Of a stretch of 64,000 nt of DNA, positions 1 through 35,861 are shown piece after piece. The notes below the pieces were generated by a model. The model was given only the letters and a program-made list of their open reading frames with translations. It did no database searches and was not told the origin of the DNA. Position 1 is the stretch's first letter, and each line of letters opens with the position of its first letter. A program made the position numbers and the translations under genes. Source of the stretch: an uncultured bacterium (GTDB lineage Bacteria > Fidelibacterota > Marinisomatia > SCGC-AAA003-L08 > JACNLC01); the NCBI GenBank assembly GCA_964527215.1, contig CAZGNZ010000001.1:1276-65275 (forward strand), read 5' to 3'.

Positions 1-1
1 T

Positions 2-250
2 AATGCCATCGCCAGTCTGGCTGAGTCGGTACAGACAGTGGGTAACTACCTGGTACGACTGAAAAGCAAAGAAGAGGCCCTTTCAGTATCGGTTACGAAT
101 ACCGAAGCCGCAAGGAGCCGCATTGTGGATGCGGACTTTGCCGAAGAGCAGATGTCGCTGATGAAGTATCAGATTCTTCAGCAGACCGGTCTTTCGGCCC
201 TTTCCCAGGCGAATTCAGCCCCGCAGGCAGTTCTCGCGTTATTCCAGTAA
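2..250 (+). CDS. fliC: Flagellin, C-terminal fragment (5' end lies outside the window)
   Basis: Frame is open from the window edge. It ends with the conserved flagellin C-terminal signature [46 protein letters not shown]. Confidence 0.85.
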
Positions 251-307
251 TCCTGTAAAGGGATTATTGAAGCAGCTGTTTGAAAAGAGTATCAGAAAGG
301 AGACAGC

Positions 308-499
308 ATGAGTGGTATCATGAGTGTCAAGGAAGTTGCGAGCTTTTTGAGGATACGTGAGCAGACCGCCTACCGTCTGGTTCAGCAGGGCAAGATCCCT
401 GCTGTTAAGATCGGAGGTCAGTGGAAGGTGATGTCAGATCATCTGGACCGCATGTTCGAAGAAATGCTTGCAGAGAAGATGAAAGTTCTAAAGGAGTAA
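308..499 (+). CDS. Small helix-turn-helix DNA-binding protein (excisionase/MerR-like HTH family)
   Basis: 63 aa with SD AAAGGAGA just upstream. VKEVASFLRIREQTAYRLVQQGKIPAVKIGGQWKV fits the excisionase-type HTH pattern. Confidence 0.7.
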   Translation: MSGIMSVKEVASFLRIREQTAYRLVQQGKIPAVKIGGQWKVMSDHLDRMFEEMLAEKMKVLKE

Positions 500-525
500 G
501 ACCATTCTCCATCAGTTTTAATCGC

Positions 526-552
526 AGCCCGTCAGTCGACGGGCTGTTTTTG
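526..552 (+). terminator. Rho-independent terminator after the HTH gene
   Basis: Hairpin AGCCCGTC-AGTC-GACGGGCT followed by GTTTTTG. Confidence 0.75.
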
Positions 553-657
553 TTATACGCGCCCGGCAGGGCGCAGTCCATTCAACCGACAAAGGGAATC
601 TCCAATGGAGACAGCCCTTGTTCTATTTAAGACGTTGTATGGGCAGAATCGCCGCAA

Positions 658-1215
658 TTATGAAATCAGGAAGCGAACTGCAATGATAATCAGTACAAGT
701 CCGCCAAACAGGCCGGCACGCCTGCCGACCTTGACAGCTAGCAGTCTTCCCAGACGGATACCGACGTAGGTCATGAGGCTGGCTGTAATTCCGATACAAA
801 GCGACGGAAGAAGCAGTTTCCCGCCGGTCAGTCCAATGCTGACACCCACTCCCAATGCATCAATGCTGGTTGCCAGCGACAGCAGCACCAGCGTCCATCC
901 GCGGGTCGGATCCCCTGGCATATCAGCCGGATTACCATCCTCAAGAAAGCTGTCCCATATCATTTTTACTGCGATCAATGCCAGCAGCAGCGCGGCAATC
1001 ATTTTTCCGTATGAGGCAGTATATGCTGCAAACCGGTATCCCGCCAGCCAGCCTGCAATCGGCATCGCAAACTGGAAAAATCCAAAGTGGAAAACCAACC
1101 GAAACTGTGCCCTGCGGCTCAGCGGACGGGATGCGAGGGCCAGCCCGACAGAGAATGTGTCGCAGCCCAGCGCAGCCGAAATTGCCAGTAACATCGGGAT
1201 AGAAGAGATTTCCAT
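658..1215 (-). CDS. mntP: Manganese efflux pump MntP (DUF204 family)
   Basis: 185 aa, about 6 TM helices. MEISSIPMLLAISAALGCDTFSVGLALA and the internal repeat LSLATSIDALGVGVSIG are typical of MntP. Confidence 0.8.
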   Translation of the reverse strand: MEISSIPMLLAISAALGCDTFSVGLALASRPLSRRAQFRLVFHFGFFQFAMPIAGWLAGYRFAAYTASYGKMIAALLLALIAVKMIWDSFLEDGNPADMPGDPTRGWTLVLLSLATSIDALGVGVSIGLTGGKLLLPSLCIGITASLMTYVGIRLGRLLAVKVGRRAGLFGGLVLIIIAVRFLIS

Positions 1216-1405
1216 GGTTCTAATTAGGGGCGCAAAATTACTATTGATAACTCAGTATTTGAAACGGAAAGCGAAAGCAGGAATAGACGGGGGTGCACAT
1301 CGAAATCCGGTTCCTGATACAAATGCATTTCTCAAACGCACCTGCTGAGCGGCAAACCAGTGAAGGCATGCAGGGGCAGGATAATGTGATCTTGAAAATG
1401 AACCA

Positions 1406-1983
1406 TTACACGCGCAGGTTGAATTCCTTTGCGTGAATGTGAATTTGATAATAAGGATGCCGGTGGAAATACCTCGAATGATGAAGATCGATATTGTCTG
1501 CATATTTCATGAGAATATCTTTGCGTAAAAAGCTTCCCATTTTCCGGTCGATGATAATTCTGGCGGTTCTGCACCATCAAACGGCAGACAAACTGGTGTC
1601 CGGATTGACTCCCTGCGGCATAATACTGAAACCAGCATCCAGGACCATCGGTTGGAATTTGCACCATTTGAATCCGCCAGTCGGCGCGGCAGCGAAATAG
1701 TTAATGCCCCGATCGATTACTGTAACCCCGTCCTGTCAGCTGACGGGCGGGGAAATTCATAGAGCCGGGCATCGGTGAATTAGGGATACAAATTCTGAAA
1801 AAGCCGATTGGCATGAACAGGTCTGCTGCGTTTCAGTCGGTTCCAGCAGGTGTGAAAAAAACCATCTTCCGGACACATCAAATAATGGTAGATTTCATTT
1901 CCGTATTTTTGTGGAAAAAGTCGGAATAACGCGCTGTTTGTCATAAGTCCTTCACCAGACAAGGTGATGGTGGCGATTGGCAA
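1406..1983 (-). pseudogene. Possible decayed gene of unknown identity (fragments in two frames, one in-frame TGA)
   Basis: Minus-strand fragment 1983->1780 (MTNSALFRLFPQKYGNEIYHYLMCPEDGFFHTCWNRLK...) ends in TAA. A protein-like frame with no start codon follows at 1735->1409 (VTVIDRGINYFAAAPTGGFKWCKFQPMVLDAGFSIMPQGVNPDTSLSAV*WCRTARIIIDRKMGSFLRKDILMKYADNIDLHH...). That frame is interrupted by TGA at 1577-1579. Confidence 0.3.
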
Positions 1984-2150
1984 GCGAAAGATTCAAAGCA
2001 GATCCCCATAAACGCTTTTTTCTTTTTCAGGTCCCCTGCGATTGTGCACCTGCGTGCTCTATGCAGTCATGCGAGCCGGTCAGCGGGAGGATACTTCGTT
2101 ACCATTTACGCGAAAAACAGTACGTCATTATCTCTAAAAACGGAGCATAA

Positions 2151-3011
2151 ATGAATAAAAATACCCTAATTCTGATAGCTTTCGGCATCATTGTAATGGT
2201 GGTGTATGTCTTGGGCTATGGCGGCATTTTCAAAGAGGGTAACGCCCCAATGTTTGTCGCAGTTATGCTGGTCTCACTGACTATTTTGTATTACACCAAT
2301 CGCGCCAAACGCGGAGAAGAAATTTATCTGCGTCCCATTCCCGGTCTGAAGGCACTGGAAGAAGCAGTCGGACGGGCCACTGAAATGGGAAAACCGGTGC
2401 TGTTTGTTCCGGGAATACAGGATATGGATCAGGTTGAAACCGTTGCCGGGGTGATTATCCTCGGGAAGGTTGCCAGTCTTACGGCGCAGTACGAAGCCGG
2501 TTTGAATGTACCGGTATCCCGGTCCATCGTAATGGAAGCGGCCCGGGAAACCTGCAGGGAGGCATACTTGAAGGAAGGCCGCCCTGACCTGTATTTTGAC
2601 GACATGGTTCATTACCTGACGGATGATCAGTTTGCCTATGCTGCCGGTGTAGACGGCATTATGCTGCGGGAGAAGCCAGCTGCCTGTTTCTACCAGGGGA
2701 AATTCTACGCGGAATCCCTGATCCTTGCTGAAACGGGTAACTCTATCGGTGCCATTCAGATTGCAGGTACCGGATCACCATCCCAGATACCGTTTTTCGT
2801 GACGGCCTGTGACTACACCCTCATCGGTGAGGAATTCTTTACGGCCAGCGCTTACCTGTCCCAAAAACCGGAACTGCTGGGAAGCATCAAAGGTCAGGAT
2901 ATCGTGAAGCTGATTGTCATGATTGCCATGGTGACTGTCCTGGTGGTAAACGGGTTTTATTCATTGGGCATGATTGATTTTGATATAACAGAATTTCTGA
3001 CGTCTAAATAG
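2151..3011 (+). CDS. Membrane protein of unknown function (2 N-terminal TM, about 200-aa soluble alpha/beta-like domain, C-terminal TM); gene 1 of 4-gene module
   Basis: 286 aa with SD GGAG 9 nt upstream. Hydrophobic segments LILIAFGIIVMVVYVLGYGGIF, MFVAVMLVSLTILYY and IVKLIVMIAMVTVLVVNGFY. I recognise no catalytic motif. Confidence 0.75.
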   Translation: MNKNTLILIAFGIIVMVVYVLGYGGIFKEGNAPMFVAVMLVSLTILYYTNRAKRGEEIYLRPIPGLKALEEAVGRATEMGKPVLFVPGIQDMDQVETVAGVIILGKVASLTAQYEAGLNVPVSRSIVMEAARETCREAYLKEGRPDLYFDDMVHYLTDDQFAYAAGVDGIMLREKPAACFYQGKFYAESLILAETGNSIGAIQIAGTGSPSQIPFFVTACDYTLIGEEFFTASAYLSQKPELLGSIKGQDIVKLIVMIAMVTVLVVNGFYSLGMIDFDITEFLTSK

Positions 3012-3019
3012 GGAGTATC

Positions 3020-4057
3020 ATGTTTTTAAAACGACAAGTACCACTGATTATTGTGATTGCCGTCGGACTGATTACCCTGTTCGGGCATTTTATTCAGAAT
3101 GATCAGATTCAGAATTTCGTGGATAATGATTCCACCCAGTGGTTTGACATTATCGCATCATTTGCCATGTTTCTGGGAGCATTGAACCTCCTGAAACTGC
3201 AAATAGTAAAGATTTATAAAAAACAGCGCAACTGGCCTTACAGCATCCTTGCGGTATTGGGTTTTGCATTTGCCATTACGGCGGGATTTTTCTTCAAAGG
3301 CGCCAATACCATCCAGATCAATAACGTAAATCCGGCACGGCTGGAACAGGTAGCCTCCATCATTGCAGAAGAGACGGAAGAGCCCGTTGAAACGGTGCTG
3401 GCCGGACTGGAAACGGCACCGGATTCCTATGACATCAACCGAATCTACATATCCAGAAAGAATGCACAGGAGTTTGCAGGTCGGCTGGAAGGTGTCGGCG
3501 TAACTACTGCACTGGGTGAAATCGACTGGGGGGCACATATGCAGGCTCGGCGAGGGGACAGCAGTTCACTGTTTACATGGATGTTTACGCATGTCTTTAC
3601 ACCATTGTCAGCGACCATGTTCGCGCTGCTGGCATTTTTTGTGGCATCGGCATCCTACCGGGCATTCAGAATTCGAAACTTTGAAGCCACCCTGCTGCTG
3701 GCCGCCGGAATTATCCTTATGCTGGGACGGGTTCCGTTTGGTCAGCTGATCCCAGCCTGGTTTGTGGGAATTCTTTTCTCGATGGGTGTGGGCGCGTTCA
3801 CGGCCCCGATGCTGCGCAGCCGGGGACTGGTATTTGGCGTGACTGTCGGACTGATGGCGGTGATTGTTATTATGCAGTTTGCGATACCGGATATTCTGAA
3901 CGCTATTTTTTACCTGCCTGAACTGCAGGCATGGATCATGGAATATCCCACCACTGCCGGTACTCGGGCCATCATGATTGGTATTGGTCTGGGCATAGTG
4001 GGAACATCATTCCGGATTATCGTTGGCATGGAACGTTCATTCCTGGGAGAACACTAA
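3020..4057 (+). CDS. Polytopic membrane protein of unknown function (about 8 TM with an acidic soluble insert); gene 2 of module
   Basis: 345 aa. SD GGGAG overlaps the stop of gene 1, leaving an 8-nt gap. Several hydrophobic helices; insert is IAEETEEPVETVLAGLETAPDSYD. Confidence 0.75.
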   Translation: MFLKRQVPLIIVIAVGLITLFGHFIQNDQIQNFVDNDSTQWFDIIASFAMFLGALNLLKLQIVKIYKKQRNWPYSILAVLGFAFAITAGFFFKGANTIQINNVNPARLEQVASIIAEETEEPVETVLAGLETAPDSYDINRIYISRKNAQEFAGRLEGVGVTTALGEIDWGAHMQARRGDSSSLFTWMFTHVFTPLSATMFALLAFFVASASYRAFRIRNFEATLLLAAGIILMLGRVPFGQLIPAWFVGILFSMGVGAFTAPMLRSRGLVFGVTVGLMAVIVIMQFAIPDILNAIFYLPELQAWIMEYPTTAGTRAIMIGIGLGIVGTSFRIIVGMERSFLGEH

Positions 4058-4899
4058 TGGAAAAGCTGCTGAACATTATCGTTAAACTGGGGTCCGTTGA
4101 CCGGCGTTATATCTTTGTGCTTGTGGGACTGGCGGTGCTGCTCCCGCTGATCTGGCCTGTGGATATTCCGGTCAGGGCAGAAAAAGATTCTAATACTGTG
4201 TACGAAACTGTGGAAGGTCTGCCGCAAAATTCCAACGTTCTGGTCTCTTTTGAGTACGGCCCGTCCACCAGACCTGAAATTCATCCGATGGCCATGGCCA
4301 TGCTGAGGCATCTGTTCAGAAACGGTCATCGGGTATATGCAACAGCACTTTGGCCGGATGGTGTTTTCATGTCCACCGAGGCGTTTTCGCAGATGGAAAC
4401 CGAGTACGACATCGAATACGGGACGGATTATGTGAATCTGGGGTATCGTCCGGGCAACGAAGCTGTTGTTAAGGGCATTGCCGCCAGTATTCCCACCCTC
4501 TATACTGCCGACACACGGGGGAATCAGCTGGCGGATATTCCCATGATGAACGGTATAGAAAATGTTCGGAATTTCGATCTGGTTTTCAGTCTGTCTGCCG
4601 GGTATCCGGGCTCCAAGGAATGGGTGCAGTTTGCCTGTGATCCCAACGACGTTCTCCTCTCAACCGGCTGCACTTCTGTGCAGGTTACGGAGGTGCTGCC
4701 GTATGTGAAGCACGGACAGATCAGCGGAATTCTGGCCGGAATGCCCGGAGCGGCTGAGTATGAAAATCTCATCAATCTGCCGGATCAGGCCACGCAGAAA
4801 ATGGCAGCCCAGAGCTTTGCCCATCTTATAATCGTGCTGTTCATCATATTCGGGAACATCACCTTTTTCATTCAACGCAAACAAGCCCAAAAGAAATAG
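4057..4899 (+). CDS. Membrane-anchored protein of unknown function (N-terminal TM, about 230-aa soluble alpha/beta-like domain, C-terminal TM); gene 3 of module
   Basis: The track ORF 3931..4899 overlaps gene 2. I place the start at the ATG in the TAATG stop/start overlap (4055-4059), preceded by GGGAGA. Product begins MEKLLNIIVKLGSVDRRYIFVLVGLAVLLPLIW and ends FAHLIIVLFIIFGNITFFIQRKQAQKK. Confidence 0.7.
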   Translation: MEKLLNIIVKLGSVDRRYIFVLVGLAVLLPLIWPVDIPVRAEKDSNTVYETVEGLPQNSNVLVSFEYGPSTRPEIHPMAMAMLRHLFRNGHRVYATALWPDGVFMSTEAFSQMETEYDIEYGTDYVNLGYRPGNEAVVKGIAASIPTLYTADTRGNQLADIPMMNGIENVRNFDLVFSLSAGYPGSKEWVQFACDPNDVLLSTGCTSVQVTEVLPYVKHGQISGILAGMPGAAEYENLINLPDQATQKMAAQSFAHLIIVLFIIFGNITFFIQRKQAQKK

Positions 4900-4910
4900 G
4901 GGGGAGTGAT

Positions 4911-5744
4911 ATGTTAGTTTCTTCAGAAATTCTGGGGGCTTGGATTGCAACGTTCCTGACCCTCGCCATTTTCAGCTATCTCTATGATGACAATCCGTTC
5001 TACAAAGCCGCCGAACACATTTATGTGGGCGTTTCCGCAGGGTACTGGGCCTGCATTGCTTTCTGGAATCAGGTCCAACCGAATCTGTTTGGACGGCTGT
5101 GGCCCAGACTGCCCGAAGATGCCGAAATGGGTCTGCTTATGAAAATCTGGTACGGGATTTACGGTTTTCTGGGTATTTTCAGTAAAAACGTATTCCCTGA
5201 AGGCGGGATTGAAGGTCATACCGATATCCACTGGATGTATCTCATTCCGCTGGCATTGGGCATCATGATGCTGCTGCGCCTGGTTCCGAAAGTGGGATGG
5301 CTGGCGCGGTGGGCTCTGGCATATATTGTGGGAATGGCAGCCGGTTTGAGATTTTACGGCTATCTGAATTCAGATGTGATTGAACAGGTCAAGGCCAGCA
5401 CGGTGGATTTTTCCGGATCACCGGGAAGTATTATCGGAGGTCTTCTGGTTGTGCTGGGAACGCTGGCTGGCTTGGTGTATTTCTTTTTCTCCAAAGCTCA
5501 TACCGGGGCTATCGGAAAAATCAGCAAACTGGGAATTTACTTCCTGATGATTTCATTTGGCGCTTCGTTCGGATTCACCGTGATGGGCCGAATATCGCTC
5601 CTCATCGGAAGGCTGGAAATGCTGATGGATTACACCCACAGCGAGTTTCTGCATTCAACGTGGTGGCTGTTGGGTATCATGATCATTCTGCTGGGTATCT
5701 GGGCGTTTACCGGCAAGGGACGGAAAACAGAGCTGCCCGCCTGA
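4911..5744 (+). CDS. Polytopic membrane protein of unknown function; gene 4 of module
   Basis: 277 aa. SD GGGGGGAG, 11 nt after the gene 3 stop. Multiple hydrophobic helices. Confidence 0.75.
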   Translation: MLVSSEILGAWIATFLTLAIFSYLYDDNPFYKAAEHIYVGVSAGYWACIAFWNQVQPNLFGRLWPRLPEDAEMGLLMKIWYGIYGFLGIFSKNVFPEGGIEGHTDIHWMYLIPLALGIMMLLRLVPKVGWLARWALAYIVGMAAGLRFYGYLNSDVIEQVKASTVDFSGSPGSIIGGLLVVLGTLAGLVYFFFSKAHTGAIGKISKLGIYFLMISFGASFGFTVMGRISLLIGRLEMLMDYTHSEFLHSTWWLLGIMIILLGIWAFTGKGRKTELPA

Positions 5745-5795
5745 TCTGAATCAGGAACTATTCAGTGATCCGGCCCGAGCGGATCAAAAATAACC

Positions 5796-5853
5796 GAAGC
5801 TCGAAACCAGACCATCTGAAAACTGATATTGGTTTCGGGCTTCCTTTTCGTTT
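5796..5853 (+). terminator. Candidate terminator / structured spacer after the membrane module
   Basis: GAAGCTCGAAACC ... GGTTTCGGGCTTC gives a 13-bp stem with one G-U pair and a 22-nt loop, followed by CTTTTCGTTT. The loop is long for a canonical terminator. Confidence 0.4.
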
Positions 5854-5925
5854 GATGCGGTTCCGCCTGGCAGGTGATAACCAGGCCGAGCAATCAGACA
5901 TAACATGCAATGAACAGGGATTTGT

Positions 5926-6939
5926 GTGAGTACACCAATCATTCAGGTTCGGAATTTAAAGACCTATTTCAAGACGGATGAGGGTATTGCCCGGGCTGTT
6001 GATGATGTCAGCTTTGATGTGTTTAAAGGGGAAACTCTCGGAATTGTGGGAGAATCAGGCTGCGGAAAATCAGTGACCGCTTTGTCAATCATGAGACTGA
6101 TCGATTCACCTCCCGGATTTTTCGCCGGCGGTGAAATCCTGTATAATAATGAAAATATTCTGGATCTGCCGGATCGACGTCTGAGGGAAATCCGCGGGAA
6201 TAATGTTTCCATGATTTTTCAGGAGCCCATGACATCACTTAATCCGGTTTTTACTTGTGGAAATCAGATTATGGAAGCTGTCCGCCTTCACCAGGGACTG
6301 GATAAAGCCGCTGCAGAAAAGAAGGCGGTGGAGATGCTGGAGCTGGTGGGAATCCCCGATCCACAGCAGCGGATTCATGAATATCCTCACCAGCTGTCCG
6401 GAGGGATGCGCCAGCGCGTCATGATAGCCATGGCACTGTCCTGCAACCCGGCCGTTCTGATTGCTGACGAGCCCACAACCGCTCTGGATGTGACCATTCA
6501 GGCACAAATCCTGGAACTGATGCTGGATCTTCAGAAAGAACTGGGATTATCCATCATCATGATTACCCATGACCTGGGTGTGATTGCCGAAATTGCAGAC
6601 CGGGTCATTGTGATGTACGCCGGTGAAATTGTAGAGGAAGGGACGGCGGGAGAAATCTTCAAACAGCCGTCACATCCCTATACGCACGGCCTGCTTCGTT
6701 CCATTCCCAATCTGTCAGCAATCGAGGATCATCCTGATACGCTGTACACAATCAGGGGGATGGTGCCCAGTGCTACCGAATTTCCGTCCGGATGTCATTT
6801 CCATCCCCGGTGCTCCCTTGTCACTGATCGCTGCCGCAATGAAAAACCGGTACTGGAAGTTCTGTCCGAGGACTCTACTCACGGTGTACGATGCTGGGAA
6901 ACGGATCAGGTTCAGGCAGGCGCAATGGAAACAGACTGA
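5926..6939 (+). CDS. ABC transporter ATP-binding protein, DppD/OppD (oligopeptide/dipeptide) type; no cognate permease or binding protein nearby
   Basis: GTG start. Walker A GESGCGKS, signature LSGGMRQR, Walker [12 protein letters not shown], and the Opp/Dpp-type C-terminal extension [12 protein letters not shown]...CHFHPRC. Confidence 0.9.
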
Positions 6940-7087
6940 AGTGTCTGTCCCGGATGTAGAACCGGGACGATGCCAATGTTTGTATGAGCTGTTCATTTTT
7001 ATTTTTGGCATGAACACTTTTTCTTGTTTTGAAATTATATGACTGAATAAATTTAGAGCCTTTTTAATTATGGATAATTCTACCTAT

Positions 7088-7160
7088 GGGGATATAGCTC
7101 AGTTGGGAGAGCGCGTGAATGGCATTCACGAGGTCAGCGGTTCGATCCCGCTTATCTCCA
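7088..7160 (+). tRNA. tRNA-Ala (anticodon GGC at 7121-7123)
   Basis: 73-nt cloverleaf. Acceptor GGGGATA/TATCTCC includes the G3:U70 alanine identity pair. Anticodon arm CGTGA-ATGGCAT-TCACG, T-arm GGTTCGATCC. CCA is not encoded. Confidence 0.95.
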
Positions 7161-7221
7161 CATCTAAAATTTCAATTGATGTACCTCATTCCATCGAAGA
7201 TAATAAACTTGGAGATTCCCT

Positions 7222-8778
7222 GTGCTAAACATGTCTAAAATCCGTGAGAATTCAGCGGTTCTCATGGGATTGCTGCTTTTCTTCTTTCTGGCCAGTATGA
7301 CGGTTGGCGGTTTGGTTGGCGGTGCAAATATTATGGACAAAATCCTGGGTCGCAACCAGGAAAGGATGTTTGTCGGAAAAGTGGAGGGATATGAAATCAC
7401 TCACACTGAATTCCGCAATGAGCAAAACCGGCAGCTGAGTTCTCAGCGGCAGGCCGGAGCTTCCATTGACAGCCGTGCCGTCCACAACGCCCAGAATACT
7501 GCCTGGAACACCATAATCGACCGTGTGATTCAGGAAGACAAGGTGGAAGAAATGGGGCTGGAAGCCACCGATGACGAAATCTATGAATTCCTGCTGTACA
7601 CACCGCCAGCATCCCTGCAGGGTCAGCTCACGGAAAGCGGTCTGTTTGCCGACAGCACCGGAACCTTTATTCTGGAAGACTATCAGCAGGCCCTGCGCAC
7701 CGGTGATTTCCCGCCGCAGATGGAAAGCTTCTGGGTGGTTTGGGAAAACTATCTGAGAGACTGGCTGCCCTATCGGAAACTGCAGAATATTTACAATTCC
7801 ACGGGAGCGGTATCTGAATTCGAGATCAAAAGAGAATACGAAAAAAAGAACATCACCTGCACACTGGAATACATTTTCGTATCTACCAACAATATTCCTG
7901 ACAGTCTGATGGAAGTACCGGACAGCGATCTGCTGGCTAAGTACAACGACGAAAAAAGAGACAAGTACCTCACTCCCGAAACCCGTACCGTCGATTATGT
8001 CTTCTGGTCCAATGATCTCAGCGCCATTGACAGCACTCGTCATTCCAGTTATCTTGACAGTATCAACAGTGCCGCTCTGCGTTTTTCCAGTGAAGCGGAC
8101 TACGCCGGGTTTATCGAAGCAGCTGCAGAGTTCAGTATGATGCCGGAAGATACGCTCGAAATATCAGAAGGCTACGATGCCAATTCCGGAATCCCGTTTC
8201 AGATGGGTGTTTTGCGCAATGCCGTCCGGTTTGCCTGGGACAGCGAAATCGGTTCAATATCCGATCCGATCAATACCGATAACGGCATCGCCGTATTTCG
8301 AATCCTGGGTGAGAAAAAAAGTGCCAGCAAACCCTTTGAGGAAGTGCAGGAATCCATTCGGCGCGGATTGATACGGGACATCAAAAAGGATTATGCCAGA
8401 AATCTCATCCTCGAAGCACTGGATAGCGGTGAAGCTTTTGCCGCCATTGCTGAACAGAATGATTTTATAGAATTTGCTTCAGATACTTCCAAAACCCTTG
8501 GATCGAGTTTCCAGAAAATCGGACGCAGCAATGAACTGACCGGTACGCTTCGGGCAATGTCCGCCGGGGACATGGCAGGCCCCGTGGAAACGTTCAGCTC
8601 AGTCGTTGCACTGAAGATGATCGAAAAAGATGCGTTCAATGAAGAACAGTATGCAGAAGAACATGACAATATAAGGGATCAGCTGCTGAGAACCCGGCAG
8701 AACGGAATCTTTAATTCCTGGCTGACTGAGTACAAGGCAACGCTGGATATTGTCGACTTCCGCAGTAAGGTTTATTGA
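7222..8778 (+). CDS. Periplasmic chaperone / peptidyl-prolyl isomerase, PpiD/SurA-like
   Basis: 518 aa. GTG start 7 nt after GGAG; ATG at 7231 is an alternative. N-terminal TM anchor VLMGLLLFFFLASMTVGGLV, SurA-N-like region, and parvulin-like segment ISDPINTDNGIAVFRILGEK. Confidence 0.7.
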   Translation: MLNMSKIRENSAVLMGLLLFFFLASMTVGGLVGGANIMDKILGRNQERMFVGKVEGYEITHTEFRNEQNRQLSSQRQAGASIDSRAVHNAQNTAWNTIIDRVIQEDKVEEMGLEATDDEIYEFLLYTPPASLQGQLTESGLFADSTGTFILEDYQQALRTGDFPPQMESFWVVWENYLRDWLPYRKLQNIYNSTGAVSEFEIKREYEKKNITCTLEYIFVSTNNIPDSLMEVPDSDLLAKYNDEKRDKYLTPETRTVDYVFWSNDLSAIDSTRHSSYLDSINSAALRFSSEADYAGFIEAAAEFSMMPEDTLEISEGYDANSGIPFQMGVLRNAVRFAWDSEIGSISDPINTDNGIAVFRILGEKKSASKPFEEVQESIRRGLIRDIKKDYARNLILEALDSGEAFAAIAEQNDFIEFASDTSKTLGSSFQKIGRSNELTGTLRAMSAGDMAGPVETFSSVVALKMIEKDAFNEEQYAEEHDNIRDQLLRTRQNGIFNSWLTEYKATLDIVDFRSKVY

Positions 8779-8840: not shown

Positions 8841-8881
8841 GAAAAATGGAGACCGGAGCGTCAGGATTGAGTGACGGCGGC

Positions 8882-9955
8882 ATGTCAATGGAGCACTATA
8901 TGACAGAAGCTGTCAGGGAAGCCTGGAAAGGGTGCGGACAGGTATCTCCCAATCCGATGGTGGGCTGCCTGATTGTAAAAAACGGGCACATTATCGGCAG
9001 AGGATACCATCGTCAGTACGGCGGCGCGCACGCTGAAGTCAATGCTTTGGAAAACTGCAGTGAATCTTCAGCCGGAGCTACGGCCTATGTTACACTGGAA
9101 CCCTGCAGCATTACGGGTAAAACACCGCCGTGCTGCGATCGTCTGATCAGTGCCGGCATTGCCAAAGTGGTTGTCAGCACTCGGGATCCCAATCCTGCAA
9201 TTAACGGAAACGGCATACGCCGGCTGCAGAACGCCGGGGTGGAAGTGGTGGAAGGCATACTTCAGGATGAAACCACTCGCCAGAATCGCGGATTTTTGAA
9301 ATGGATCAGAACCGGTCTGCCTTGGGTTGTCGCAAAAACAGCTCAAACCGAAAACGGGTTTATGGGATTGGATTCCAGTTCCAGAATTCAGATCACCGGC
9401 CGGGAAAGCATGTGTTCAGTACATCAGCTGAGAAGCAGAGTGGATGCCGTAATGGTGGGAAGGCAAACCGTGGAAACGGACAATCCTCTGCTTACTGTCC
9501 GTCTTGCTGCTGGTTCGAATCCAAAACGAATTGTGATAGACCCGCAGCTTCGTCTGCCGCAAACCTGCAGTATCTTTCGAGATCAGAAAGCGGAAACAAT
9601 TGTTATCTGCAGCGATGCCGGATCGCCGATGGGCCGGTGTTCATACTGCCGATATTTGCCGCTGCGTGTTGTAAACGGTGTGATACCGCCGCCGGTCATC
9701 CTGGAAGCACTGGGAAAACTTGGGATTACAATCCTGATGATTGAGGGCGGACCTGCACTGCTTCAGATTTTTAAATCATTTGACATGATTGACGAAATAC
9801 ACCAGTATACCGCACCGGTCACCCTGCCAGGCGCAATATTGAAGAATCCTATCTCTATTGATGATAATTGGAATATCATTTCGGAACAGCAAACCGGAAA
9901 TGATCAATTGTTGATTGCAGAAAAAAGGACATCGTATGTTCACAGGAATTGTTGA
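8882..9955 (+). CDS. ribD: Bifunctional riboflavin biosynthesis protein RibD (pyrimidine deaminase / uracil reductase)
   Basis: Motifs NPMVGCLIV, HAEVNAL and LEPCSITGKTPPCC. The track start 8846 lies next to the upstream terminator, so I prefer ATG 8882. Confidence 0.9.
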   Translation: MSMEHYMTEAVREAWKGCGQVSPNPMVGCLIVKNGHIIGRGYHRQYGGAHAEVNALENCSESSAGATAYVTLEPCSITGKTPPCCDRLISAGIAKVVVSTRDPNPAINGNGIRRLQNAGVEVVEGILQDETTRQNRGFLKWIRTGLPWVVAKTAQTENGFMGLDSSSRIQITGRESMCSVHQLRSRVDAVMVGRQTVETDNPLLTVRLAAGSNPKRIVIDPQLRLPQTCSIFRDQKAETIVICSDAGSPMGRCSYCRYLPLRVVNGVIPPPVILEALGKLGITILMIEGGPALLQIFKSFDMIDEIHQYTAPVTLPGAILKNPISIDDNWNIISEQQTGNDQLLIAEKRTSYVHRNC

Positions 9956-10592
9956 AGAACTCGGAACAGTAAAAAAAGTAATGGAGACATCCTCCGGCAA
10001 GCAGTTTGTCATTAAAGCCAAAACCGTGATGGATGATCTGCAGATTGGTGACAGTATTGCCGTCAACGGTGTTTGCCTGACGGTTGTGAAAACCACCAAA
10101 ACTACGTTTACACTGGATCTTGTATTTGAAACCCTGGATAAATCGAATCTGGGTGAAATGGAAGTGGGAACTCAAATCAATCTGGAGCGAGCTCTTACCC
10201 TGTCCACTCGTCTGGGGGGGCACATCCTTCAGGGACATGTGGAAACGGTGGGAGTGATACTGGACAAGGAAACCAGCGGAGACGGTGCAACCATGGTCAT
10301 CGGTATGGATCCATCCTGGCTGCGGTACTGCATCCCAAAGGGGTCTATTGCACTTGACGGTGTTTCACTCACCATTGCGTCTATGAAAGACAATCTCATC
10401 ACCGTGGCATTGATTCCTCATACGCTGGAATGCACTACGCTTGGTTTCAAGGAAAATGGTGCCACGCTGAATGTTGAAACGGATATCATCGGGAAGTATA
10501 TTGATCGGCTGCTCAGCATCGATGAAGATGAGGACGAGACCGGAGATACATACATGACCGGGTTAATGACCTGGGGGATAGGTGAGAGCTGA
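9936..10592 (+). CDS. ribE: Riboflavin synthase (alpha chain)
   Basis: Canonical N-terminus MFTGIVEELGTV and internal repeat GDSIAVNGVCLT / GSIALDGVSLT. Overlaps the ribD end by 20 nt. Confidence 0.9.
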   Translation: MFTGIVEELGTVKKVMETSSGKQFVIKAKTVMDDLQIGDSIAVNGVCLTVVKTTKTTFTLDLVFETLDKSNLGEMEVGTQINLERALTLSTRLGGHILQGHVETVGVILDKETSGDGATMVIGMDPSWLRYCIPKGSIALDGVSLTIASMKDNLITVALIPHTLECTTLGFKENGATLNVETDIIGKYIDRLLSIDEDEDETGDTYMTGLMTWGIGES

Positions 10593-11836
10593 TGAAAAAA
10601 GATTTTAATACGATTCAGGAGGCCGTACGGGAAATTGAAGCCGGCCGTATGGTTATTGTTGTGGATGAGGAAGATCGCGAAAATGAAGGCGATTTTATCA
10701 TATCGGCAGAGTTGGCAACACCGGAAGACCTGAATTTCATGATGACGGAAGGACGGGGACTGATCTGTATTTCCATTCCTCTAGAAAAAGCCCGTCAGCT
10801 GGAACTTACACCCATGTCTTCCAGCAACACTGCGCTTCATGAAACCGCGTTTACGATATCGGTAGATGCTGTTAAAAACACGACCACTGGAATATCCGCA
10901 AATGATCGATGGCAGACAGCTCAGGTGATTATGAAACCTGATACGGTACCGTCAGACCTGGCTCGTCCGGGTCACATGTTTCCTTTGATTGCCAAGGGAG
11001 GCGGCGTGCTGCAGAGAGCCGGACATACGGAAGCAGCGCTGGACCTTATGGAGCTGGCGGGTGTTTCACCGGGCGCTCTGCTGGTGGAAATCGTGGATAC
11101 CGACGGCAGTATGGCCAGAGTGCATCGCCTGAAGGAAATTGCGGATCGGTTCAACATGCCCATCATAACGATAGCTGATCTGATCAAGTATCGCCGCAAA
11201 CATGATAAAATGGTCACGGAAATGACAGCCATCCCGTTTCCGTCAAAATATGGGAATTTCCAACTCCGTCTGTTTGAGGATGTTGTTAACCACGACCACC
11301 ATGTGGCTATTGTAAAAGGAGATATCCAGCCGGATGATGATGTTCTGGTCAGGGTTCACTCCCAGTGCCTGACCGGTGATCTGTTCGGTTCCCTGCGCTG
11401 TGACTGCGGAATACAGCTGGAAACCGCGCTTACCCGAATTGAAAAGGAGGGGAAAGGCATTGTGGTGTATCTTCGTCAGGAAGGACGCGGTATCGGTCTG
11501 AAAAATAAAATAATGGCCTACCAGCTTCAGGATAAGGGATTGGATACCGTCGAAGCCAATCACCGATTGGGATTCGCCGATGATCTTCGTGAATATGGGA
11601 TAGGGGCCCAGATCCTGCTGGAGTGCGGAGTTCGTAAAATGAGACTTCTCACCAATAATCCTCGAAAAATCGTAGGTCTTGAAGGATACGGACTGGAAGT
11701 CACCGGACGCGAACCCATTGAAATAGAACCCAATGTAATAAATAAGCGGTATCTGGAGACCAAACGGGACAAACTCGGACATTTGATCCTGATTCACGAA
11801 AATTCAAACAACACAGATAACAATACCGATGATTAA
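10592..11836 (+). CDS. ribBA: Bifunctional 3,4-dihydroxy-2-butanone-4-phosphate synthase / GTP cyclohydrolase II
   Basis: DRENEGDFI (DHBP synthase) and [21 protein letters not shown] (GTP cyclohydrolase II). ATGA overlap with ribE. Confidence 0.92.
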
Positions 11837-12293
11837 AGGTGAGTTGACTGCAAAAAACCGCTGCATCACCATCGTCGCAGCCGAATTCAACCCGCATGTC
11901 ACCGGAGCCCTGGTTAACGGAGCAACGGATGCATTCCTGTTTCACGGTGGGCAGGCGGATAATCTGGAGCTGATCTGGGTTCCCGGTGCTTTTGAAATCC
12001 CCGGGACCGTACAGCAGATTCTGAACAGCAGCCGGCGGACCGATGCCATTGTGACTCTGGGTGCAGTAATCCGCGGCGGCACCCCTCATTTTGATTTTGT
12101 GGCCGGGACTGCCGCGGACGGACTGGCGGAACTTTCCCGCACTGCAGATATCCCTGTCATTTTCGGAATTCTGACCACCAATAATCTAAACCAGGCACTT
12201 GAGAGGGCCGGGACCAAAGCCGCCAACAAAGGCTGGGAAGTTACGGAAGCCGCGCTAAAAATGATTTCTGTCTATGAACAGATCGGTCAATAG
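11829..12293 (+). CDS. ribH: 6,7-dimethyl-8-ribityllumazine synthase
   Basis: 154 aa. VPGAFEIPG, LGAVIRGGTPHFDFV and NKGWEVTEAAL are typical of lumazine synthase. Confidence 0.9.
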   Translation: MIKGELTAKNRCITIVAAEFNPHVTGALVNGATDAFLFHGGQADNLELIWVPGAFEIPGTVQQILNSSRRTDAIVTLGAVIRGGTPHFDFVAGTAADGLAELSRTADIPVIFGILTTNNLNQALERAGTKAANKGWEVTEAALKMISVYEQIGQ

Positions 12294-14763: not shown

Positions 14764-15808
14764 CCCTTCGCTCGAACTTGAACTCTGCTTCCAGTTCATC
14801 CAGCACATTCCGAATCAGTTCCCGTCGTTCATTGTGATGAATGAAGGCACTTTTAAATCCGTTGATGATGAGGTGTCTGACATGATCCGGGGTCAAATGG
14901 TAAATTGTACAGGCTTTCCAGTACTCGTCGGTCAGCGTGGTATGTGAAATCAGCCGGTTGTCGGTATTCAGCGTAACGCGAAGGAATTTATCGAAATACA
15001 GTTTGAACGGGTGTTCCTCGTAAGAGCGGACGGATCGGGTGTGGACATTGCTCGTCAGGCAGATTTCCAATGCGATGCGGTGATCATTCACGTAATCCAT
15101 CAATTCCCCATCCTCACTCAGCCGCGTGCCGTGTCCGATTCGATGTGCTCCGCAGTAATGAATAGCCTGGTGAATGCTCTCCGGACCAAAGGCCTCGCCG
15201 GCATGAAGCGTTGTATTGACATTGTTTCGCAGGATCAGAGAAAAGGCTTCCTGATGGTGACGCGCGGGAAAATTCTCTTCGGCACCGGCCAGATCAAAAC
15301 CCACAACTCCCTTGTTTTTAAACTGTATCGTAAGATCCGCCAGTCTCAGTGATACTTCCGGCGAAATCTGTCTGATTCCGCAGATAATGATTCCTGACAA
15401 AATGCCGAAGTCTTCTCTGGCACGGTTCAGCCCCGTGTTGACGGCCTCCACGGATTCCGCCAGAGTCATGCCCCTGTCGGTATGAAGGATGGGAGAATAC
15501 CGCACTTCCAGATACCGCACCCCATCCTCCCGGCAGTCTTCGGCAAGTTCGTACGCCGCTCTCTCCAGAGCTTCCGGGGTCTGGAGCACGGACAGTGTAA
15601 TATCAAACCGTTTCAGGTATTCCACCAGTGTTCCGATATTTTCACCGATACTCAACTGCTTTTGAAGCAGATCATGGTCCCGGGTAGGCAGTTCAACCCG
15701 GTCTTTTTCCGCCAAATCCAGAATAGTACTGACCCGCAAGCTGCCGTCCAGATGACAATGGAGTTCTGCTTTCGGCAGCCGCTGTATAAGTTCTTTTGTT
15801 AATGACAT
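14753..15808 (-). CDS. add: Adenosine deaminase
   Basis: LPKAELHCHLDGSLR, HAGE and TLNTDN (metal ligands and catalytic residues of the adenosine/AMP deaminase family). Confidence 0.9.
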   Translation of the reverse strand: MSLTKELIQRLPKAELHCHLDGSLRVSTILDLAEKDRVELPTRDHDLLQKQLSIGENIGTLVEYLKRFDITLSVLQTPEALERAAYELAEDCREDGVRYLEVRYSPILHTDRGMTLAESVEAVNTGLNRAREDFGILSGIIICGIRQISPEVSLRLADLTIQFKNKGVVGFDLAGAEENFPARHHQEAFSLILRNNVNTTLHAGEAFGPESIHQAIHYCGAHRIGHGTRLSEDGELMDYVNDHRIALEICLTSNVHTRSVRSYEEHPFKLYFDKFLRVTLNTDNRLISHTTLTDEYWKACTIYHLTPDHVRHLIINGFKSAFIHHNERRELIRNVLDELEAEFKFERRVIV

Positions 15809-15857
15809 ATTATTTTCCTGAATGATAATGAACGTTTTCCCTGCAACAGGAATCTTC

Positions 15858-17744
15858 TTAATCTTTTTTCAACGCGGTGTAAATCAGCCAGACGGCGACA
15901 AGGAAAAACAGTGTAATCCCCGCCCATGAAAATCCGGTGATTTCCGGCCACCAGTTTTTGTCTTTGGTGATGTAAATGGGAATTGCCACTAGCAGGGCCG
16001 TAATGGCTTCTCCTGTGATCAGACCCGAGCTGAGCAGGACACCGTGGCGTTTTCCGGTTTCTCCGCCGCCCTGAAGACTGGTAAAATGGGCAATCATTCC
16101 GCCGATGAAAATCGGAACGGACAGTTCGAACGGCAGATAAATTCCCACTGCCACAGCCAGAACGGGTACCCTGAAATCAGATCCGCGACGTTCCTGAAGT
16201 ACATCTATGAATATGATCACAGCTCCCAAAACTGCGCCGATTCCGACCATGTCCCAGGGCAGATTTCCCTGAAAAACTCCCTCGGCTACGCTCTTCATCA
16301 ATGTGGCCTGCGGTGCGGACAAATCTGCTGAACCGATGGTATAAGCGGTATGCAGGACATCCAGCACAATTCCAACAACCAGAGCTGCGGATATGGTTCC
16401 GACAATCTGCATCAGCTGCTGTTTCCAGGGGGTTGCTCCCAGTATGTAACCGGTTTTTAAATCCTGAAGATTGTCTCCCCCAATGGCGGCGGCACAGCAA
16501 ACGACGGTTCCAATCAGGATTGCCCCGGCAGCGCCCGCTGTTGAACCGGTTCCCAGAATTGCAAGCAAAAGCAGGGAAGAAAAAAGGATGGTGGCAATGG
16601 TGACTCCGGATATGGGATTGTTGGATGACCCAACGACACCGGCCATGTAGGATGCCACTGCCGAGAAAAGGAATCCGAAAATCATCATGATCACAGTCAG
16701 AAGAACCGCCACTGATACGGATTTTATCACATCAAGATAAAGCAGGAACATGGGAAGCATCAGCAGCAGGAGCGCAATACCAACATATTTAATGGGAATG
16801 TCCCGTTCCGACAGGGGAACGGGGGCATCGGCTTCATCTCCGTATTTGGATCGCTGCATGGACTGAATGCTGGTCATAATGCCGGTTTTCAACGGTTTGG
16901 CCAGTTTTATCAGAGACCAGATTCCGCCGATAACCATGGCTCCGACACCCAGATACCGGATTTGACTGGTCCAGATTTCCCAGGCGGAATCCATCGCAGC
17001 GCCTTCCCAGCCGTGGATTGCGGAATAGATGGGAATGGCGATTCCCCATGAAATGAAACCGCCGGCAAAAACCAGAATGGAAATATTCCGGCCCACGATA
17101 AACCCAACGGCAATCAGGGTGGGAGAGAGATCGATTCCGGCTCCGAAGATGGATCGACCGACCGTGAATGCCCCTTCAATCGATTTATTCCACATTGAAA
17201 AACCGGTCTGACCCAGTTTCATGAACCCGGAAAACAATCCGCCCAGACCGATGAGCACTAACCCATAGATGGATTCCTTCGATTTTTCCCGACGTGCGGA
17301 TTCACCCACTTTCAGCACTTCCGCAGTGGCGATCCCTTCGGGATACAGCAGTTTTGCTTCCACGATCAATGCCCGGCGCAGAGGAATGGTGAACAGAACG
17401 CCGATGATTCCCCCGATTCCGGCAATTTTGGCAATTTCCCAATAGTTGAAGCTGGTCCAGTATCCCATGAGCATCAGTGCCGGAATGGTAAAAATCACTC
17501 CCGCTGCCAGCGATTCACCAGCCGACGCAGCGGTTTGAACCAGATTGTTTTCCAGCATATTGGAATTTTTAAACATGCTGAGTATTCCCATGGATATTAC
17601 AGCCGCCGGAATTGAGGCGGAAACCGTCATCCCTGCGAACAGACCCAGATAGGCATTTGCACCGGCAAGGGCAATGGCCAAAACCACACCCAGCAGCATT
17701 GAACGGATAGTAATTTCAGGTACAGGCTGGTTAGATTGTTTCAT
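15858..17744 (-). CDS. OPT-family oligopeptide transporter
   Basis: About 628 aa, polytopic. EITIRSMLLGVVLAIALAGANAYLGLFAGMTVSASIPAAVISMG is typical of OPT. ATG 17744 preferred over the track's TTG 17756. Confidence 0.8.
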   Translation of the reverse strand: MKQSNQPVPEITIRSMLLGVVLAIALAGANAYLGLFAGMTVSASIPAAVISMGILSMFKNSNMLENNLVQTAASAGESLAAGVIFTIPALMLMGYWTSFNYWEIAKIAGIGGIIGVLFTIPLRRALIVEAKLLYPEGIATAEVLKVGESARREKSKESIYGLVLIGLGGLFSGFMKLGQTGFSMWNKSIEGAFTVGRSIFGAGIDLSPTLIAVGFIVGRNISILVFAGGFISWGIAIPIYSAIHGWEGAAMDSAWEIWTSQIRYLGVGAMVIGGIWSLIKLAKPLKTGIMTSIQSMQRSKYGDEADAPVPLSERDIPIKYVGIALLLLMLPMFLLYLDVIKSVSVAVLLTVIMMIFGFLFSAVASYMAGVVGSSNNPISGVTIATILFSSLLLLAILGTGSTAGAAGAILIGTVVCCAAAIGGDNLQDLKTGYILGATPWKQQLMQIVGTISAALVVGIVLDVLHTAYTIGSADLSAPQATLMKSVAEGVFQGNLPWDMVGIGAVLGAVIIFIDVLQERRGSDFRVPVLAVAVGIYLPFELSVPIFIGGMIAHFTSLQGGGETGKRHGVLLSSGLITGEAITALLVAIPIYITKDKNWWPEITGFSWAGITLFFLVAVWLIYTALKKD

Positions 17745-22003: not shown

Positions 22004-23317
22004 TCAACGATCGATATTCAGGCGGTAGTACTCGATCATGGCGGATAGGGAATGCTGTACATAATCGATTCGGAACTCTGTGTCCCGCGGTTTCTGCTTA
22101 TCTTTGGATTTAAACCAGTCTGGGTGCAGTCTGGGGAACGCCCCTGCCAGAGGTCCCCGAACCGACTGACCCGCAGTCAGGAAACGCAGACCTTCATCCA
22201 CAGCCGAATCGAATAAGGATGTGTCGTCAAGGAACCCGGCAGCTGCCAGAAGCCCCTCCAGTCGAGTGGCTGCCGGTGCAAGACGGCCGTCCCATACAAG
22301 ACATCCGGAATTTGGAAACAGATCATTGCATTCGCGAAACTCACTGGTGATCTGGCCGGCAATTTGTTTCGCATGATGACGGAGTGTATCGGAGATGGTC
22401 GGCTCCAGCTCCGGACTGGTATCAAGCAGTTTTCGAGTAGCGATAAGGGCCCAGTGATCAGCGGGAACGACAGAGTCATTGTACCGGCTTCGGGATAGAA
22501 ACAGCAGGGCGTTCAGTGCAGAATTCCGCCATTTCGGATCGGGATCAATATCATGGAGCATTAACAGTCCCAACGCTGCCTCTCCCGGGTAGTACAGTGA
22601 ATGCCAGGACAGATCTCTTCCGCCGTGTCCCGGACGATAACGGGACACAAATCCGCCGTTTGGCTGCTGCATCCACAGAAGAAATGAACCCAGTGCCTGC
22701 AGTGTATCCAGACCAATAAACTCCGAATCCCGGACTGCCAGTCCGGCAAGGGCAACCAGTCCCAGCCCTGTGCCGCCCAGCTTGGCCTGATAGGGGTTTT
22801 TGTTGTTGGTGATTTTTGGGACGGACCAGACTGCTTTCAGGCTGGACTCAAACTCCAATCCCTGGATGGTATTGTTTTTCAGAAATTTTCCTGCATTGCG
22901 AAGGGATTTGGAATGAGATTCGTTTTTAAGAATTCCGGATTCGTAGGTATCCATCGCATACATCGTTCCGGCATGCCTGAGGATATTATACTTTTTGCCT
23001 GCGGGGTAATTCAGATTTGGATTGGCGGCATATCTGAACTGGCCGTTTTGATCCACGGATTCTGATATATATCTGTAGGCCAGAGACATCCTGTCTTCAA
23101 GGAAACTTCCGGTCAGTTCGATGATGTCTCTGTCGAATTGATCCAGATATGCTGGTCTGTCAAATAGAATTTCCTTTTGGTTCATCTGATTAAAATTCAA
23201 AGTGGATTCATGCAGAGAAGAAATCTTTTTATCCTGCAGAACAGTGTAGATTATGGTGTTGACAGCAAAAATCCCTACGGCAACGGCAAGAAATCGAATG
23301 ATGTGTTTTTTATTCAT
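22004..23317 (-). CDS. Membrane-anchored protein of unknown function, alpha/alpha-toroid-like repeats (six-hairpin/terpenoid-cyclase-like fold suspected)
   Basis: 437 aa. N-terminal TM IIRFLAVAVGIFAVNTIIYTVL. Recurrent helix-hairpin motifs: NILRHAGTMYAM, GGTGLGLVALAGL, QQPNGGFVSRY, YYPGEAALGLLML. Confidence 0.4.
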   Translation of the reverse strand: MNKKHIIRFLAVAVGIFAVNTIIYTVLQDKKISSLHESTLNFNQMNQKEILFDRPAYLDQFDRDIIELTGSFLEDRMSLAYRYISESVDQNGQFRYAANPNLNYPAGKKYNILRHAGTMYAMDTYESGILKNESHSKSLRNAGKFLKNNTIQGLEFESSLKAVWSVPKITNNKNPYQAKLGGTGLGLVALAGLAVRDSEFIGLDTLQALGSFLLWMQQPNGGFVSRYRPGHGGRDLSWHSLYYPGEAALGLLMLHDIDPDPKWRNSALNALLFLSRSRYNDSVVPADHWALIATRKLLDTSPELEPTISDTLRHHAKQIAGQITSEFRECNDLFPNSGCLVWDGRLAPAATRLEGLLAAAGFLDDTSLFDSAVDEGLRFLTAGQSVRGPLAGAFPRLHPDWFKSKDKQKPRDTEFRIDYVQHSLSAMIEYYRLNIDR

Positions 23318-30953: not shown

Positions 30954-30965
30954 TTAAATTTAGCC

Positions 30966-31379: not shown

Positions 31380-31484
31380 AGTTTTGAAAATATCATTGTA
31401 TTGTTGGCCGAATAGTAAAAAATTTAATGCCTGTTTTTGAATGAAATTCAGCAAGGTTTTATCAACACAAAGTAAGGACCAGAC

Positions 31485-31985: not shown

Positions 31986-32044
31986 AGATTCTGCGGTCCG
32001 ACAATTACCGTAATTAAGACGTAACATTGTGAGTTTTAGGATTC

Positions 32045-32080
32045 AGAAGGGGGAATGAACATTCTCCCTTCTTGCTTTCA
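32045..32080 (+). terminator. Candidate terminator
   Basis: AGAAGGGGGAAT-GAAC-ATTCTCCCTTCT forms a 12-bp stem with one G-U pair, followed by a weak T tract (TGCTTTC). Confidence 0.45.
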
Positions 32081-32138
32081 CAGAGAATCCATTTACTCAC
32101 ATTTCATCTGTTGAACTGATATAATCCGAGGTAAAAAA

Positions 32139-35838: not shown

Positions 35839-35861
35839 GCCCGGAAGTTTCATGAAACCTT

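Follow-up and report, generated by a model that had tools for sequence, protein, structure and literature searches.

A 64,000-nucleotide (nt) stretch of DNA from an uncultured bacterium of the Fidelibacterota (Marinisomatia; assembly GCA_964527215.1, contig CAZGNZ010000001.1), which is called the window throughout, carries four consecutive plus-strand genes for membrane proteins, G1-G2-G3-G4, here called the quartet. These four genes very probably form one unit and specify one complex, as judged from a gene order that is kept in related genomes of several phyla and from the repetition of the whole set in tandem. The genes of an ATPase of the ASKHA type and of two further proteins recur beside the quartet in these relatives, and the quartet is probably part of a cell-envelope machine which has not been described before. 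The best protein matches assign the DNA to Marinimicrobia/Neomarinimicrobiota (SAR406) of the FCB group. We tentatively read G1-G4 as the four subunits of one inner-membrane complex, kept as a module in bacteria of the FCB and PVC groups, that would serve as the membrane core of a larger, ATP-linked envelope machine.

The gene quartet and its conservation

Coordinates are those of the window. The quartet and the ribosome-binding site of its first gene are located as follows.

2151..3011, + strand: G1, DUF6754 protein of 286 amino acids (aa) (open reading frame (ORF), Pfam, AlphaFold2 (AF2) model)
3020..4057, + strand: G2, polytopic membrane protein of 345 aa (ORF, hydropathy, charge, family alignment)
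4057..4899, + strand: G3, protein of 280 aa, bitopic at both ends (ORF, AF2 model, family alignments)
4911..5744, + strand: G4, polytopic membrane protein of 277 aa (ORF, family alignment)
2137..2140, + strand: GGAG Shine-Dalgarno (SD) site of G1 (read directly from the sequence)

The four ORFs, their sizes, their junctions and a GGAG-type SD site for each gene had been given in an initial annotation made from this DNA, and all were found again on reading the sequence. G1 and G2 are separated by 8 nt, G2 and G3 share a 1-nt overlap in TAATG (-1 nt), and G3 and G4 are separated by 11 nt; the SD sites lie 6-9 nt 5' of the starts and read GGAG for G1, GGGAG for G2, GGGAG for G3 and GGGGGGAG for G4. 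The mechanical ORF of G3 opens at 3931, and the start was placed at the ATG at 4057, which overlaps the TAA stop of G2, because the N-termini of G3 homologues from 17 other genomes align with it. In the comparison with three relatives the synonymous differences (pS) of the quartet genes are saturated at 0.66-0.93 against nonsynonymous differences (pN) of 0.10-0.30, and therefore all four are real genes under purifying selection. At the protein level the quartet is 35-66% identical to its relatives in other phyla. A scan for sigma-70 promoters and terminators gave counts not above those of shuffled sequence, and the Rfam scan of positions 1-8000 returned a tRNA only.

The distribution of the quartet was surveyed in one genome per GTDB species, where 395 species showed a relative of G1, and the best 80 loci were analyzed. 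The loci of the relatives are numbered L001 and onwards, and the counts use those loci which have enough flanking sequence. G1 is followed by G3 and then G4, in the same order, in 63 of the 63 loci with enough downstream sequence, and every G2 that was detected lies between G1 and G3. The carriers comprise Marinimicrobia, Phycisphaerae, a metagenome-assembled genome (MAG) labelled as Isosphaeraceae, Latescibacteria, Zixibacteria, Eisenibacteria, a genome labelled as Caldithrix abyssi and MAGs labelled as Lentisphaeria. Between Marinimicrobia and Phycisphaerae, G1 is 61-66% identical and the linked ATPase 58-59% identical, which is very high for membrane proteins.

In several relatives the complete set is multiplied, and two to three tandem G1-G2-G3-G4 sets stand beside one pair of genes for the ATPase and a protein called p375 (L161, 2-8054; L167, 333-6267; L129, 7702-14601; L078/L087). 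The paralogous G1 copies in these tandem quartets are 50-60% identical to G1 of the window. That the quartet is repeated as a unit, with its internal order constant, is the strongest sign of four proteins acting together. The initial annotation had taken the four genes for one operon and probably one complex, with an order that should recur in other genomes; the order in all informative loci, spread over several phyla, and the tandem repeats of whole quartets speak in favour of both statements.

At the Caldithrix abyssi-labelled locus (L074) the quartet is interrupted by unrelated genes. Between G1 and G2 (L074, 10817-13162) there are three small ORFs and a protein whose C-terminus is a sorting domain of the type IX secretion system (T9SS), and between G3 and G4 (14973-16358) there is an NYN/OST-HTH protein.

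Families, folds and topology of the four proteins

G1 is a full-length member of the Pfam family DUF6754 (PF20539), with a score of 383 bits against a cut-off of 27 (E 7e-115) and with residues 26-268 placed on profile positions 5-247 of 257. The family holds 2086 clusters at 50% identity (E<=1e-3), and its entry is a domain of unknown function (DUF) which leaves out the three constant partners G2-G4. The searches of Pfam and NCBIfam gave no match for G2, G3 and G4, either with the single sequences or with 20-60 family members each. Three of the four proteins are thus outside Pfam, and by these searches none appears to have a solved or characterised relative. The earlier statement that the module has no recognisable family therefore stands insofar as none of the four belongs to a characterised family, and is corrected for G1, which does have a Pfam entry.

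G1 consists of an N-terminal helix, a short loop, a transmembrane (TM) helix, an alpha/beta domain of ~185 aa and a C-terminal TM helix; the AF2 model, which is fair (predicted local distance difference test, pLDDT, 81), begins with two helices, followed by an alternating beta-alpha domain and the C-terminal TM helix. Its identity across phyla is 61-83%, and 61-66% in the cross-phylum loci. An N-terminal extension with a median of 176 aa is found on 125 of 149 DUF6754 cluster representatives; these extensions begin with a signal peptide, which is followed by fibronectin-III (FN3) repeats or a PQQ_2/BamB-like beta-propeller. A basic stretch, AKRGxxIYxRP, after the TM helix precedes the DUF6754 domain. 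The signal peptide and the FN3 or propeller extensions of the homologues argue for a periplasmic N-terminus and a cytoplasmic DUF6754 domain, and this support from homologue architecture is independent of the positive-inside rule from which the cytoplasmic placement had first been proposed. G1 of the window belongs to the minority short form, in which an extra N-terminal helix stands in place of the periplasmic domain. None of the 149 cluster representatives has DUF6754 fused to G2, G3, G4, p375, the ATPase or the small protein p98 described below, and no functional names were found for distant DUF6754 clusters.

The residues ~183-235 of G1 (nt ~2697-2855) hold 35 of the 75 invariant columns, in the pattern AESLILAET...IQxAGT...QxPFFxxACDYTLIGEE. 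This most invariant stretch is also the one with the lowest AF2 confidence (pLDDT 50-71), and from the two properties together we read it as a surface which would need a partner or a ligand. A comparison of the G1 model with the Protein Data Bank (PDB) by Foldseek gave no match below E 0.06.

G3 consists of a short cytoplasmic N-terminus, a TM helix, a Rossmann-like alpha/beta domain of ~200 aa, a second TM helix and a basic tail. Its N-terminus has an invariant D-R-R-x-x-F before the first TM helix, and QRKQAQKK follows the second. As these basic residues lie outside both TM helices, the domain should be periplasmic and the tail cytoplasmic, in agreement with the earlier proposal and by the positive-inside rule only. 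The AF2 model of G3 is good (pLDDT 88, alignment of 60 sequences); it starts with a short N-terminal helix and the TM helix, continues with an alternating beta-alpha domain of six strands and ends in a long TM helix at the C-terminus. The best Foldseek match in the PDB is MTH777 (1kjn; E 4e-4, probability 1.0, TM-score 0.59 on the 152-aa target); the two differ in that the identity is 12%, the root-mean-square deviation is 7.4 A, the TM-score on the query is 0.36 and there is no sequence-profile match. MTH777 is a structural-genomics protein, itself uncharacterised, so it offers no functional lead for G3, and the other matches of G3 are generic Rossmann-like proteins only. The models of both proteins agree with the soluble, alternating beta-alpha domains, here of ~180-200 aa, which the initial annotation had placed between terminal TM anchors in G1 and G3.

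The polytopic nature of G2 and G4 is borne out by hydropathy, with 8 segments in G2 and 5 segments above threshold in G4. The positive-inside rule fits a G2 topology of 8 TM helices with both the N-terminus and the C-terminus inside. G2 carries an insert of ~95 aa (residues ~93-191) in a predicted periplasmic loop, and the acidic stretch noticed earlier lies within it. The stretch exists as described, but the segment is variable in the family alignment and absent from many lineages, so the acidic insert is no core feature of G2. In the family alignments the conserved motifs are TPLSATMFALLAFFVASASYRAFR and AGxRAIMIGIALG for G2, and YLYxDNPFYKxAEH and YFFFSKEHxG...FGASFGFAVMGRISLLIGR for G4. 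Conserved charged residues within the TM segments of both proteins are few.

The topologies of G1 and G3, predicted from their sequences, place globular domains on both membrane faces, cytoplasmic for G1 and periplasmic for G3, and they support the earlier idea of a complex with a domain on each side.

It had also been suggested that G1+G2 and G3+G4 go back to the duplication of one ancestral pair, made up of an anchored alpha/beta subunit and a polytopic subunit, with the topology now inverted. The architectures do alternate, the AF2 models of G1 and G3 share the same order of secondary structure (a0-b1-a1-...-b6-a6-TM), and there are short look-alike motifs (GTGSPSQI against TGCTSVQV, and a terminal A-x-x-Y); however, the alternating beta-alpha order is generic to Rossmann-like folds. 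BLASTP found nothing for G1 against G3 or for G2 against G4. HHalign on the family alignments gave probabilities of 0.6% (G1 against G3) and 0.8% (G2 against G4); when larger alignments of just the soluble domains were compared, in both local and global modes, the values were 0.1-0.2%. The Foldseek match lists of the two models against the PDB share no entry among the matches listed. A tandem duplication is thus unsupported by the comparison of sequences and profiles, and we regard it as unlikely.

The other searches were likewise made to place the proteins among known systems. Profile searches against PDB sequences for six of the seven families (all except p98) returned nothing but the FN3 part of long G1 homologues. 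The PADLOC models of anti-phage defence gave no match for G1-G4, the ATPase or p375, and for p98 gave Cas10b at E 0.006 only, which is at chance level. Flavin, Fe-S and NADH-binding motifs were not found. In the literature searched, DUF6754, PF20539 and PF13941 were never mentioned, and it held nothing relevant on GlmL with ASKHA or with a membrane.

The linked ATPase, p375 and p98

In 51 of the 62 loci with enough upstream sequence, a trio of genes lies directly upstream of the quartet and encodes an ASKHA ATPase (mutL), p375 and a small hydrophobic protein of ~98 aa (p98). The initial annotation, made from a window that does not encode these partners, had missed them and had considered the downstream ATP-binding cassette (ABC) ATPase instead. 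The linked ATPase (~606 aa) is a member of the GlmL/MutL family, aligns along its full length with Pfam MutL (E 2e-125) and has the invariant ASKHA-type motifs DCGSTTTK, VDIGGATTD and SGGVLSHAP. Against NCBIfam it matches accessory_GlmL at E 5e-65, with scores of 220 against the GlmL cut-off of 475 and 216 against the Or-4 cut-off of 600, which is far below both equivalog cut-offs, and therefore it forms a separate subfamily. Compared with the GlmL/MutL accessory protein it has an extra C-terminal region of ~120 aa. The protein p375 (~375 aa) matches RnfC_N in 12 of 16 members (best E 8e-6), biotin-lipoyl-like domains in 10 of 16, KOW in 7 of 16 and NQRA_N in one member; no conserved lysine was found at its would-be biotin or lipoate position.

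The linkage can also be followed from the side of the ATPase. Starting from it, p375 adjoins in 48 of 51 metagenome loci, and of the 21 ATPase loci that are flanked by 6 kb or more on each side, 16 contain a quartet. The quartet and the ATPase genes are found co-directional, convergent (L038) and divergent (L144), besides the loci with tandem quartets. As the ATPase pair recurs in such different arrangements, a functional link is indicated rather than an inherited gene order. From gene linkage, topology and conservation we infer physical assembly of the proteins, coupling to ATP and a role in the envelope or in transport.

In the machine which we propose, the ATPase and the barrel-sandwich protein p375 would dock on the cytoplasmic face of the complex, at the strongly conserved DUF6754 domain of G1 and at conserved loops of G2 and G4. 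Movements driven by ATP would then be relayed by the polytopic subunits to the alpha/beta domain that G3 has in the periplasm, and in most lineages also to the FN3 repeats or beta-propeller at the N-terminus of G1; with these periplasmic parts the machine would move an envelope component or act on it. The variable periplasmic domains, which are of protein-interaction type, fit an envelope-facing role. In the lineage of the window the trio is unlinked to the quartet and G1 has lost its periplasmic domain. A wider claim is possible, though rather doubtful: that the quartet together with p375, p98 and the GlmL-like ASKHA ATPase represents a previously undescribed class of ATP-driven membrane-spanning machine, powered by an ATPase of the actin/Hsp70 fold and not of the P-loop type, retained in both the FCB and the PVC superphylum with ~60% identity and serving a core envelope function such as the transport or assembly of components.

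Several observations weigh against an ATP-linked envelope machine. No gene of the trio occurs anywhere in the 64 kb of the window, and no remnant of the trio was detected in the 935-bp gap upstream of G1. The trio is also absent from the quartet flanks in L007 and L033, the nearest relatives (~82% identity), as well as in L090, a complete Eisenibacteria genome, and in the Caldithrix-like L074; the equally close L006 offers ~3 kb upstream of G1 only, with no trio match there. In the other direction, at five loci no quartet lies within 6-9 kb of the ATPase gene. GlmL-family proteins are otherwise tied to soluble B12-dependent mutases and not to membranes. The alpha/beta domains of G1 and G3 show no recognisable ligand motif and no confident structural homologue by Foldseek. 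The flanking genes differ by phylum (Marinimicrobia have opp and cdsA, Phycisphaerales have rpmF-plsX-fab, one Zixibacteria genome has a bactofilin and the Caldithrix-like genome has polysaccharide genes), and no consistent hint of a common pathway came from them in the five phyla compared.

Given the loci without the trio, the quartet might work alone. It could be a membrane complex that is sufficient in itself and does without an ATPase, for example a transporter coupled to ions or an enzyme bound to the membrane, and the neighbours would then be regulators, assembly factors or a co-located separate function. The stand-alone quartets of the window, L007, L033, L074 and L090 and the ATPase loci without a nearby quartet fit this explanation, and G1 has invariant acidic or polar residues (D158, Q160, E188, E194, C220, D221, E227, E228) as expected for a catalytic or ion-binding site. 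On the other hand, the quartet is linked to the ATPase pair again and again, in several phyla and in several independent gene arrangements, the searches showed no transporter or enzyme family similar to it, and the TM segments of G2 and G4 contain few conserved charged residues. We consider a quartet independent of the ATPase possible, if on the unlikely side.

Among the flanking genes, the seven-gene cluster of the Phycisphaerales locus L085 (14617-21126) is followed directly by rpmF-plsX-fabH-fabD-fabG-acpP-fabF, and in the Marinimicrobia locus L001 cdsA lies ~7.5 kb upstream of G1. The fab/plsX and cdsA neighbours may mark a lipid connection or may be coincidence.

Comparison with known systems

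PilM-PilN-PilO-PilC, GspL-GspM and MreB-MreC-MreD are inner-membrane platforms built around an actin-fold protein. The proposed machine resembles them in general logic only, in that the genes of a cytoplasmic protein of the ASKHA fold, of bitopic proteins bearing periplasmic domains and of a polytopic protein stand together, and the short conserved cytoplasmic N-terminus of G3 (D-R-R-x-x-F) before its TM helix recalls the PilN segment that binds PilM. However, G1-G4 match no PilN, PilO, PilC, MreC or MreD family, which sets them apart from the type IV pilus, the type II secretion system and MreBCD. The linked ATPase is of the GlmL/MutL-hydantoinase branch, unlike the FtsA/PilM or MreB branch of the pilus and elongasome. 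Moreover, G1 and G3 are anchored at both ends, and secretin, pilin and peptidoglycan-synthesis genes are not linked to the quartet, unlike in the pilus, the type II secretion system and the elongasome.

Na+-NQR and RNF are similar in the alternation of polytopic subunits with anchored globular subunits on both membrane faces. NqrA and RnfC have a barrel-sandwich domain, and p375 (not linked in the window) has a barrel-sandwich hybrid domain of the RnfC_N/NqrA_N type. They differ in that G1-G4 gave no match to NqrB/C/D/E/F or RnfA/D/E/G and in that an ASKHA ATPase stands in place of the redox input module.

GlmL has been proposed as a reactivase for glutamate mutase, and the full-length match of the linked ATPase to Pfam MutL is shared with the GlmL/MutL accessory protein of this B12-dependent enzyme. 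The system might accordingly handle a corrinoid (B12), through uptake, membrane-bound B12 chemistry or cofactor reloading, with the GlmL-like ATPase as reactivase and the Rossmann-like domains binding the cofactor. The family of the ATPase has members in B12-dependent mutase operons, and B12-binding domains are flavodoxin- or Rossmann-like, as are the domains of G1 and G3. Yet the ATPase scores below the NCBIfam equivalog and subfamily cut-offs, as a separate subfamily, and adjoins no mutase gene in any locus examined. In the annotated loci there was no GlmE/GlmS or OraE/OraS, and no cluster protein had a Pfam B12-binding match. No B12-binding domain or MtrA is among the best 50 Foldseek matches listed. 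A corrinoid function is, in our judgement, highly improbable.

The downstream OppD-like ATPase

5926-6939: OppD/DppD-type ABC ATPase (oligo_HPY domain, Pfam/NCBIfam)

The gene that follows the quartet in the window suggested another arrangement, in which this OppD-like ATPase would drive an ABC transporter with G1-G4 as its unconventional membrane subunits. An OppD-like gene (>55% identity) comes after G4 in 18 of 63 genomes, with gaps down to 24-53 nt in some relatives. The ATPase is an orphan in the window, where no homologues of the oppA, oppB and oppC genes of the relative's operon were found, and L088 likewise has oppD after G4 and no oppABC directly upstream. However, all 18 genomes belong to one Marinimicrobia clade and the adjacency is absent in all other phyla, so the constant linkage of an ATPase gene to its membrane genes, as in ABC transporters, is missing. 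In the window the OppD-like gene is separated from G4 by a gap of 181 nt, begins with GTG and has no GGAG. In L001 oppA-oppB-oppC and oppD stand on either side of the seven-gene cluster, and the ATPase, a typical DppD/OppD protein with oligo_HPY, is therefore read as part of an Opp system interrupted by the cluster. G2 and G4 match no ABC permease family, with no hit to BPD_transp_1, ABC2, FtsX or similar entries of Pfam and NCBIfam for the window proteins and for 20 and 22 family members; the only weak ABC-related match is TMD0_ABC in 6 of 20 G2 members (best E 0.003). The role which the initial annotation had considered for the downstream ATPase thus finds no support, and an ABC transporter of this kind is very unlikely. 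As a separate observation, the adjacency of G4 and oppD is kept within the clade despite rearrangements on both sides.

Other features of the window

The window opens inside the C-terminus of a flagellin-like ORF (38-250), after which comes a small HTH_17 excisionase-type gene (308-499); these genes (38-499) sit where the synteny with the relatives breaks. A stretch of 935 bp (1216-2150) separates the divergent MntP-like gene (658-1215, - strand) from G1, and no convincing ORF, Rfam match or DNA similarity to the upstream regions of the relatives was found in it. A tRNA gene (7088-7160, 63.8 bits) is followed by a SurA-N-domain protein (7222-8778). The ORFs at 8846-12293 resemble a riboflavin operon (ribD-, ribE-, ribBA- and ribH-like), as judged from the translations without a family scan. 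The ORF of 437 aa at 22007-23317 (- strand) has no Pfam match at E<=1e-5. The G+C content of 30001-42000 is 0.42-0.46 against ~0.49-0.50 in the first 30 kb, and this region may be of different origin.

Significance

What has been catalogued so far of the seven proteins is a domain-of-unknown-function entry for one of them. The carriers Marinimicrobia (SAR406), Phycisphaerae, Latescibacteria and Zixibacteria are abundant and mostly uncultured bacteria of oceans and sediments, and the quartet is among their most conserved membrane proteins, with G1 ~60% identical between phyla. To our knowledge, the bacterial motors of transport and secretion are P-loop ATPases or use ion gradients; if the quartet does work with the ASKHA ATPase, the way in which this membrane machine is powered would for this reason be unusual. 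Cultured lineages carry the quartet as well, as in the Caldithrix abyssi-labelled genome, and the Phycisphaerae and Fidelibacterota include cultured species. The constant four-gene module with its variable periplasmic head on G1 (none, FN3 or beta-propeller) provides handles for genetics and for cryo-electron microscopy.

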